A stretch of 62,877 nucleotides of DNA, filler included, from Basidiobolus ranarum (Eukaryota): NCBI GenBank assembly GCA_040143965.1. It is 9 parts of 9 records of this genome, joined end to end, with 100 filler letters (N's around TTAATTAATTAA, not from the genome) between each part and the next. Parts side by side here need not be neighbours in the genome. Positions count along the whole stretch, not along the records: positions 7,022 to 13,939 come from JASJQH010001217.1; 8 more parts are not named here. One strand, given 5' to 3'. The notes beneath the pieces are model-generated. The model saw only the letters and a list, made by a program, of their open reading frames with translations, was not told the origin of the DNA and did no database searches. Shown one piece after another: positions 8,055 to 8,943 of the stretch; the first letter of the stretch is position 1; each line of letters begins with the position of its first letter. The position numbers and the translations under genes were made by a program.

Positions 8055-8943
8055 ATGTTTCCAGTGACAATAAGACAAGGTTTAAGAAGTGCACGTAGCT
8101 TCAGTACTACTGCCTTTAATAATACACCTCACTTGGTTCAGGTATGACTTTTCTTATTGAATCTTATTGTATTTTCATTACATACTCACTGTTACATCTT
8201 TAGGTTGAAAGTTCCATTAAAGGTGGAAGTTTCCTAGTATCTAGAAGATTAGCAGAACGTCTTCATTATCAGTACACACCATATTATGATTTCCTCAAGG
8301 CTGTGGTGTTCAAAGTAAGCTACATATTAAAACTCGCTTATGCAACCTTTAAAATAACTTTTTCTCGCTCTAGGGATTCAAACAAGAGATAGTCAACTAT
8401 CAAGAGCTTCCCAGTGACTTGGCAGATTTCGTTCAATTTGTAAAAGAAACCTCCATTACAGTAGCACCAATTTCAAAGTTCGATATTGAAGTTGATGGGG
8501 AAAATGTCACTGGTGCTGCATTATCTCACCGTGAATTAAACAAAGTTGCCAAAAGTCTCTTGCAAGAAGCACAAGTGGAGAAAGCAGTAACTAGCCGATT
8601 CTATGACATTATCAAGGAATCCTCCTCCAAAGGAGTGGTTTTCCCTGGTGCCAATAATCTACGTAAATCTGTTGACTTCAAGTTTTTTTTGGACGAGGAT
8701 ATTCGTTCTAGAGCCAGAAGAGAATTTAACCGTATTAAATGGCGCGATTCACGTAGAAATGTCCTGAAGATGGATGACATAGTACAACAGATTCGTAAAG
8801 GTGAAGCTAATCTTGACCTTCGTAGTATGAAGAAGAATGCTATCATCGTTAAGGCTGATGATATGGATATGGAAGAACTAGTAGAGACTTTAGCGCTAAA
8901 GATCTTGGAGATAAGCGGTGATCAAGACCCTATTGAACAATAA
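8055..8943 (+). CDS. Bacterial-type cytidylate kinase (Cmk)-fold protein with degenerate P-loop and mitochondrial-type presequence; exons 8055-8141, 8204-8314, 8374-8943
   Basis: Three phase-0 GT-AG-joined exons give one open frame. N-terminus MFPVTIRQGLRSARSFSTTAF is Arg/Ser-rich with no acidic residues. Cmk-like blocks in order: VDGENVTG, KGVVFPG, KFFLDEDIRSRARR, MDDIVQQIRK, NAIIVKADDMDMEELVE. Confidence 0.8.

Follow-up and report, generated by a model that had tools for sequence, protein, structure and literature searches.

The Cmk-like gene at 8055..8943 of the Basidiobolus ranarum window (the whole stretch of DNA that was analysed; 62,877 nt, filler included) encodes a protein, K7432_013043, with the fold of a bacterial-type cytidylate kinase (Cmk) in all three of its parts, the Cmk-specific insert included, and this protein seems to be kept as a maintained pseudoenzyme and not as a decaying copy. 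The best explanation, to which we give a probability of about 0.6, is that the protein descends from a bacterial-type Cmk, is non-catalytic and confined to this lineage, has been kept by selection in Basidiobolus, carries a presequence, acts in the mitochondrial matrix and uses its former nucleotide cleft as a binding surface. Two further Basidiobolus proteins enter the comparisons below, namely an orthologue in Basidiobolus meristosporus and a paralogue in B. ranarum (K7432_009634).

The spliced product of the gene comprises 255 amino acids and is identical in every letter to the deposited B. ranarum protein K7432_013043, which is a 'hypothetical protein' at NCBI and a '(d)CMP kinase' in UniRef, a label that we take to be automatic. 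The original prediction, which had been made from the DNA alone, had described an intact three-exon open reading frame (ORF) of which only the last exon appears in the ORF track, and this is what the canonical splice sites and product identity bear out, with exon 3 forming the sole long ORF (8374-8943; 189 aa). Exon 1 has a single ATG, at 8055, in its stop-to-stop frame (8013-8147), and the B. meristosporus orthologue and the paralogue have their N-terminal start at the same place. The G+C fraction of the two introns pooled is 0.289, compared with 0.389 for the exons. The features of the gene and of its neighbour are as follows.

8055..8943, plus strand: Cmk-like gene of three exons and two GT..AG introns, with ATG at 8055 and TAA at 8941-8943
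8055..8141, plus strand: exon 1 (residues 1-29), presequence-like N-terminal extension with R-S-F-S at residues 14-17, placed by the splice sites and product identity
8142..8203, plus strand: intron 1, 62 nt (GTATGA..CTTTAG, GT..AG)
8204..8314, plus strand: exon 2 (residues 30-66), first beta strand, degenerate P-loop and remodelled NMP-binding block, placed by alignments with genuine Cmks
8204-8236, plus strand: degenerate P-loop VESSIKGGSFL in exon 2
8267-8314, plus strand: remodelled NMP-binding block YQYTPYYDFLKAVVFK in exon 2
8315..8373, plus strand: intron 2, 59 nt (GTAAGC..CTCTAG, GT..AG)
8374..8943, plus strand: exon 3 (residues 67-255 and TAA), Cmk-type insert, core strands, position of the lost GRD, LID-like helix and C-terminal helix
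8632-8655, plus strand: position of the lost GRD, GVVFPGAN, in exon 3
8680-8724, plus strand: LID-like basic helix KFFLDEDIRSRARRE in exon 3
9575-10702, minus strand: neighbouring PX-domain gene, a relative of which is called 'regulator of vacuolar morphogenesis' by the JGI source

The window is composed of pieces of ~7 kb each, separated by spacers (N44 + TTAATTAATTAA + N44) at positions 6922-7021, 13940-14039, 20952-21051, 27950-28049, 34942-35041, 41933-42032, 48920-49019 and 55903-56002, and linkage across pieces is not to be assumed. The linked context of the Cmk-like gene is the piece at 7022-13939 (6918 nt, the length on record for the contig of K7432_013043), which holds this gene, the PX-domain gene and some unassigned ORFs. 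A direct repeat of 208 nt, with just two copies within the window that are 98% identical, flanks the Cmk-like gene (7673-7880 and 9155-9362; 1482 nt from start to start), the first copy ending 175 nt 5' of the ATG and the second beginning 212 nt 3' of the stop codon. The repeat gave no Rfam match (E up to 1) and no tRNA, its folding z-scores (-1.21 and +0.10) are not unusual. It may be a small element of the dispersed kind, an effect of the assembly or the edge left by a tandem duplication. Fragmentary copia-type LTR retrotransposons (gag, zinc knuckle, Pol beta-barrel and RVT_2) are located at 1143-1949, 3430-3807 and 18477-19345; those at 1143-3807 are found on a different piece from the Cmk-like gene, and dispersed repeats are numerous across the pieces of the window.

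The Cmk fold and the Cmk order of the structural blocks, both proposed in the original prediction, were recovered with profile as well as structure comparisons. Against the Pfam family PF02224 (Cytidylate_kin; gathering cut-off 26 bits) K7432_013043 scored 31.5 bits as a whole (E 1.8e-7) and 23.6 bits for the exon 3 product alone, while the paralogue scored 42.2 bits, the B. meristosporus orthologue 24.4 bits, just under the cut-off, and real Cmks 229-242 bits. In hhalign, the profile of the three Basidiobolus proteins matched one built from four genuine Cmks, with a probability of 98.8 (E 9.7e-17; 215 columns), and the same block order was observed in the alignments. The AlphaFold2 model of K7432_013043 (pLDDT 79.5, pTM 0.77; residues 1-21 with pLDDT < 50) retrieved only Cmks at ranks 1-21 in Foldseek (E 1.1e-11 to 3.9e-8; next class from E 5.9e-5), and the top five of 48,161 chains in VIA-align were likewise all Cmks (Z 17.2-20.5, 202-211 residues aligned; next row Z 12.8). 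These matches exceed chance expectation by a wide margin. An ESM Atlas search agrees with this fold, and in structure searches the model of the paralogue has the Cmk fold too. Searches of the PDB by sequence gave nothing significant, either with K7432_013043 alone (best E 0.37-0.38, an unrelated uS9c chain) or with the Basidiobolus profile (best match 7l4a, E 0.22), suggesting that the sequences of these proteins have drifted far. The deoxynucleoside kinase family PF01712 gave no match to K7432_013043 at E up to 10, and 18.6 bits for the paralogue, below the cut-off of 27.

A phmmer search against 1.84 billion cluster representatives (E up to 0.001) returned six matches for K7432_013043: the B. 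meristosporus orthologue (E 1e-117), the paralogue (E 3e-19) and four Cmks of the ordinary kind, whose motifs are canonical and whose sources are metagenomic or unnamed (E 7e-5 to 4e-4). No homologues beyond Basidiobolus, other than such ordinary bacterial-type Cmks, were thus present among these representatives, and a profile search of a 5.8-billion-cluster collection yielded the three Basidiobolus proteins only. When the Cmk families were removed from the Atlas search, the best score was 0.82 and all matches were bacterial or viral P-loop kinase clusters, which argues against a hidden eukaryotic family of at least 50 members. In the collections searched, the family is detectable in Basidiobolus only. 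The paralogue is 30% identical to K7432_013043, and both have a full-length intact ORF. An orthologue of the paralogue was not found for B. meristosporus in the 5.8-billion-cluster profile search; it may be absent from the gene set, or the paralogue may be specific to B. ranarum. In a tree of the three Basidiobolus proteins and 82 bacterial Cmks, built by a quick method, the three group together (SH-aLRT 98) and are split from all bacteria by branches at the optimiser ceiling (length 10), and as these branches are saturated no donor, age or rooting can be read from the tree. Candidate bacterial transfers, mostly intronless, are reported to make up 2-5% of the gene models of Basidiobolus genomes (PMC7466969), and the transfers listed for gut fungi include a gene of a 'Cytidylate kinase-like family' (10.1101/487215). 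The main texts of papers on horizontal transfer in Basidiobolus and early-diverging fungi mention neither cytidylate kinase nor PF02224 nor protein 312504; their supplementary tables of transfer candidates may list the gene.

Bacterial-type (type 1) Cmks (4e22, 3r20, 2h92 and 1kdo) share with K7432_013043 the same fold over ~205-210 residues, the insert in the NMP-binding domain and the same block order. They differ from it in sequence, with at best 23% identity and 14/18 invariant residues replaced in K7432_013043, the Walker Lys included, and with PF02224 scores of 24-42 bits for the Basidiobolus proteins, as well as in the eukaryotic N-terminal extension and two spliceosomal introns of the Basidiobolus gene. 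A Cmk-derived pseudoenzyme had been expected to be unusual among eukaryotes. This holds for the dead form, of which no report was found in the literature searched (cytidylate kinase together with pseudoenzyme or mitoribosome), but not for the bacterial-type Cmk itself, which is known from Encephalitozoon cuniculi (7l4a), a fungus-related eukaryote. The latter enzyme has the same fold (Foldseek E 8.5e-11; VIA-align Z 18.8), was solved with two CDP bound and is hence nucleotide-binding, and is the non-significant best PDB match of the Basidiobolus profile noted above. A specific kinship between it and the Basidiobolus proteins is not demonstrable from the comparisons made, and the microsporidian gene is described as a weak candidate for bacterial transfer (PMC3486916).

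Cleavable matrix presequences are basic, lack acidic residues, are rich in Ser/Thr and have an Arg at -2/-3 of the cleavage site. All three Basidiobolus proteins have an N-terminal extension of this composition, as the motif is generally defined, which comprises 20-25 residues and is missing from bacterial Cmks. Their first 30 residues contain 0 Asp/Glu, 2-4 Lys/Arg and 7 Ser/Thr (0 Asp/Glu, 3 Arg and 7 Ser/Thr in K7432_013043), and R-x-F-S occurs just before the first strand, at residues 14-17 in K7432_013043 and the orthologue and 17-20 in the paralogue. The extension is disordered in the models of K7432_013043 and the paralogue. The presequence-like N-terminus of the original prediction is therefore common to the three proteins, and on its composition a mitochondrial location appears probable, at about two in three. 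The ~20-residue extension would then act as a cleavable presequence for import into mitochondria, with processing near residue 17 (Arg at -3) and a mature protein that acts in the matrix. Alternatively, K7432_013043 could be a retained non-catalytic Cmk-fold protein of the cytosol or nucleus, in which the extension is a mere disordered tail. Disordered N-termini are common, targeting is here read from composition only and 2-3 basic residues in 25 constitute a weak signal. However, the extensions of the three proteins are similar in length, lack acidic residues and carry R-x-F-S just before the fold, and only 4/13 of residues 1-13 are identical between K7432_013043 and the B. meristosporus orthologue while the site itself is kept. 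A cleaved presequence would be expected to show such free variation upstream of a kept cleavage site, and we consider a cytosolic or nuclear protein unlikely.

The state of the Cmk motifs was checked against four and later 82 genuine bacterial Cmks. The latter comprise 78/80 loci picked by two peptide patterns, one of which contains the Walker-A motif (2/80 loci were left out, with an ORF outside 180-300 aa), and the four phmmer matches, which were not picked in this manner. Eighteen columns of the MAFFT alignment are invariant in 82/82 bacterial Cmks, and K7432_013043, its orthologue and its paralogue keep 4/18 each. Six of the eighteen lie inside the picking patterns, so that their invariance is partly by construction, and K7432_013043 keeps 3/12 of the rest (K169, R179 and R182, all in the LID-like block). 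These three residues and the P-loop Gly37 are kept in K7432_013043 and the orthologue, with K169 and R182 missing from the paralogue. The Walker A motif, IDGPxxxGK[ST]T in genuine Cmks, reads VESSIKGGSFL, as predicted without GK[ST], and the loop G-x-x-G-x-G-K-[ST] is absent from all three Basidiobolus proteins. The Walker Lys, present in 82/82 bacterial rows, is Ser in all three (Ser38 in K7432_013043), and the S/T that follows it is F, F and G in K7432_013043, the orthologue and the paralogue, respectively. In the NMP block, TPYYDFLKA stands where genuine Cmks have DTGAMYRA, in agreement with the predicted replacement of DSGAIYR by PYYDFLK; here the invariant G has become Y/Y/L (in the same order of proteins) and the invariant R is conservatively replaced by K in all three. 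The R of the 'VR' block is E/E/Q, and the predicted loss of RD..D is seen as GE..L in K7432_013043, with RD replaced by GE/AE/HD and the final D by L/L/gap. In published Cmk structures, the TG..YR block, the 'VR' Arg, GRD and RDxxD make contacts to CMP and phosphate.

Two of the predicted losses need to be narrowed. The Arg and Asp of GRD are missing under every alignment, but the reading that GRD becomes 'GAN' depends on the alignment, as it is obtained without gaps, whereas hhalign places a three-residue deletion of RD(I) and MAFFT places the residues elsewhere. Similarly, the statement that every functional motif is replaced stands for Walker A, the NMP block, GRD and RDxxD and fails for the LID-like block with its three retained basic residues. 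Restoration of the P-loop by different splicing had been named as a possible refutation; no GK[ST] is encoded on the plus strand in any frame of 7000-9600, so that an alternative exon could not restore it. The NCBIfam cmk equivalog TIGR00017 (cut-off 135.55) was not reached by K7432_013043 (24.8 bits) or the paralogue (46.4 bits), compared with 218.7 bits for a control genuine Cmk, and the B. meristosporus orthologue is missing from the matches at E up to 1. The loss of catalytic and substrate-binding residues fits the dead kinase fold that was proposed, and we infer that K7432_013043 cannot transfer phosphate from ATP to CMP. Since the Lys-to-Ser change and the missing blocks are shared by a paralogue that is 30% identical, it is simplest to suppose that the duplication came after the loss of activity, and the dead form would then be old and retained.

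Under the preferred reading, the mature protein would fold like a Cmk without phosphoryl transfer, and its former nucleotide cleft, in which F39, Y56, Y57, L60 and F142 take the place of S, T, G, Y and Q in real Cmks, might now be an aromatic and hydrophobic surface for a protein, a peptide or a non-nucleotide ligand. This purely conjectural role is drawn by analogy with the guanylate-kinase-like (GK) domain of the MAGUK proteins, an NMP-kinase fold in which catalysis has been lost and the cleft has become a protein- or peptide-binding site. The MAGUK domain would share the dead NMP-kinase fold and the repurposed cleft with the mechanism proposed here; it is an animal domain of guanylate-kinase origin and forms part of large scaffold proteins, being neither organellar nor stand-alone. 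A second comparison, made in the original prediction, is with NDUFA10, an accessory subunit of metazoan complex I which is mitochondrial and is described as having a nucleotide-kinase fold and a non-kinase role. It belongs to another family (dNK, PF01712), and its matches are weak, with chain 7v2c_w far below the Cmks for the K7432_013043 model (Foldseek E 1.9e-4, TMq 0.39) and an E of 1.4 by sequence, so that the comparison serves as an analogy only. It does provide a precedent for an inactive kinase in which the binding of a nucleotide or other phosphorylated ligand persists, for sensing or storage, since dGTP is reported on NDUFA10 of complex I (PMC9226000). The retention of K169, R179, R182 and Gly37 in K7432_013043 and the orthologue, and of a basic residue at the NMP-site Arg in all three proteins, would be consistent with such a role in Basidiobolus. 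On the other hand, the nucleotide-contacting residues are those lost or replaced in the Basidiobolus proteins (the Walker Lys/Thr, the TG of the NMP motif, the 'VR' Arg, the GRD Arg/Asp and RDxxD), and the absence of K169 and R182 from the paralogue indicates that the retained basic residues are no feature of the family. Continued nucleotide binding is accordingly regarded as decidedly doubtful.

A broader and more speculative scenario, which we think improbable as a whole, is that a bacterial-type Cmk was acquired, by transfer or very old inheritance, was stripped of catalysis, gained a presequence and introns and was duplicated, with the two dead paralogues becoming lineage-specific accessory parts of a mitochondrial machine. 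By analogy, candidates for this machine would be the mitoribosome, which would echo the bacterial Cmk-S1 fusion proteins that are present among the Atlas matches (row 1), or a respiratory complex, as with NDUFA10.

Several observations argue that the dead protein is retained by selection. K7432_013043 and the B. meristosporus orthologue are identical at 197/241 aligned residues, or 197/255 when one 14-residue gap is counted (77-82%). Residues 30-74, where the degenerate P-loop and remodelled NMP block lie, form the best-conserved segment, in which K7432_013043 matches the orthologue at 44/45 positions and the paralogue at 18/45. The neighbouring PX gene is 72% and 68% identical to two B. meristosporus matches and 37-42% across Mucoromycota, and between the two species the conservation of the Cmk-like protein is no lower than that of this one neighbour gene that was compared (77-82% against 68-72%). 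Together with the full-length paralogues at 30% identity, this level of conservation and its peak in the remodelled site support the prediction that the protein is kept and is not a decaying duplicate. The gap mentioned above corresponds to residues 86-99 (about 8431-8472 of the window), which are absent from the orthologue, lie within the Cmk-type insert and belong to a continuous ORF in exon 3 here; it is either a true deletion or an extra intron in the B. meristosporus gene model. The two PX matches are encoded on different B. meristosporus contigs, pointing to duplication of the gene or of a genome region there. The 68% match is on a contig of 185,201 nt, as is the Cmk-like orthologue, and this agreement, which is one of size only, hints at a conserved neighbourhood.

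The confinement of homologues to one genus, and the many candidate bacterial transfers in that genus (2-5% of gene models; PMC7466969), would also be in keeping with a decaying or functionless relic of a bacterial gene, or with an artefact of gene prediction. This is very improbable in view of the intact three-exon ORF with canonical splice sites, the independent B. meristosporus gene model (82% identical over aligned residues), the full-length paralogue with a Cmk fold, a conservation exceeding that of the adjoining PX gene and its peak in the remodelled site. That the protein has retained enzyme activity, as a phosphotransferase whose active site is non-canonical and employs, for example, Lys34, which precedes the usual Walker position in the loop of K7432_013043 and the orthologue, would suit the UniRef label but is scarcely credible, with the paralogue lacking any Lys in the P-loop segment, most phosphate- and CMP-contacting positions gone and the TIGR00017 scores far below those of a genuine Cmk.

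A bacterial-type Cmk in a eukaryote and dead nucleotide-kinase folds with other roles (NDUFA10 and the MAGUK GK domain) were known beforehand. The second dead paralogue, the range restricted to Basidiobolus in the collections searched, the conservation peak in the remodelled site and a conservation at least equal to that of the PX gene are new. The range is narrow, and the finding has no bearing on a long-standing open question. If the preferred reading is true, the public '(d)CMP kinase' label misstates the function of the Basidiobolus proteins, and no catalytically dead member of the bacterial-type Cmk family would have been described before them. They would also provide a compact case in which an enzyme fold has become a non-enzyme, apparently within a single fungal genus known for its uptake of bacterial genes. 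Should the reading as accessory parts hold, they would represent the first Cmk-family pseudoenzyme together with a recent and datable recruitment of a foreign fold by an organellar complex. As many relatives have been sequenced, with 19 new Basidiobolus genomes reported in 10.1101/2025.03.31.646025, the loss of the Walker Lys, the gain of the presequence and introns and the duplication are steps that could be dated.
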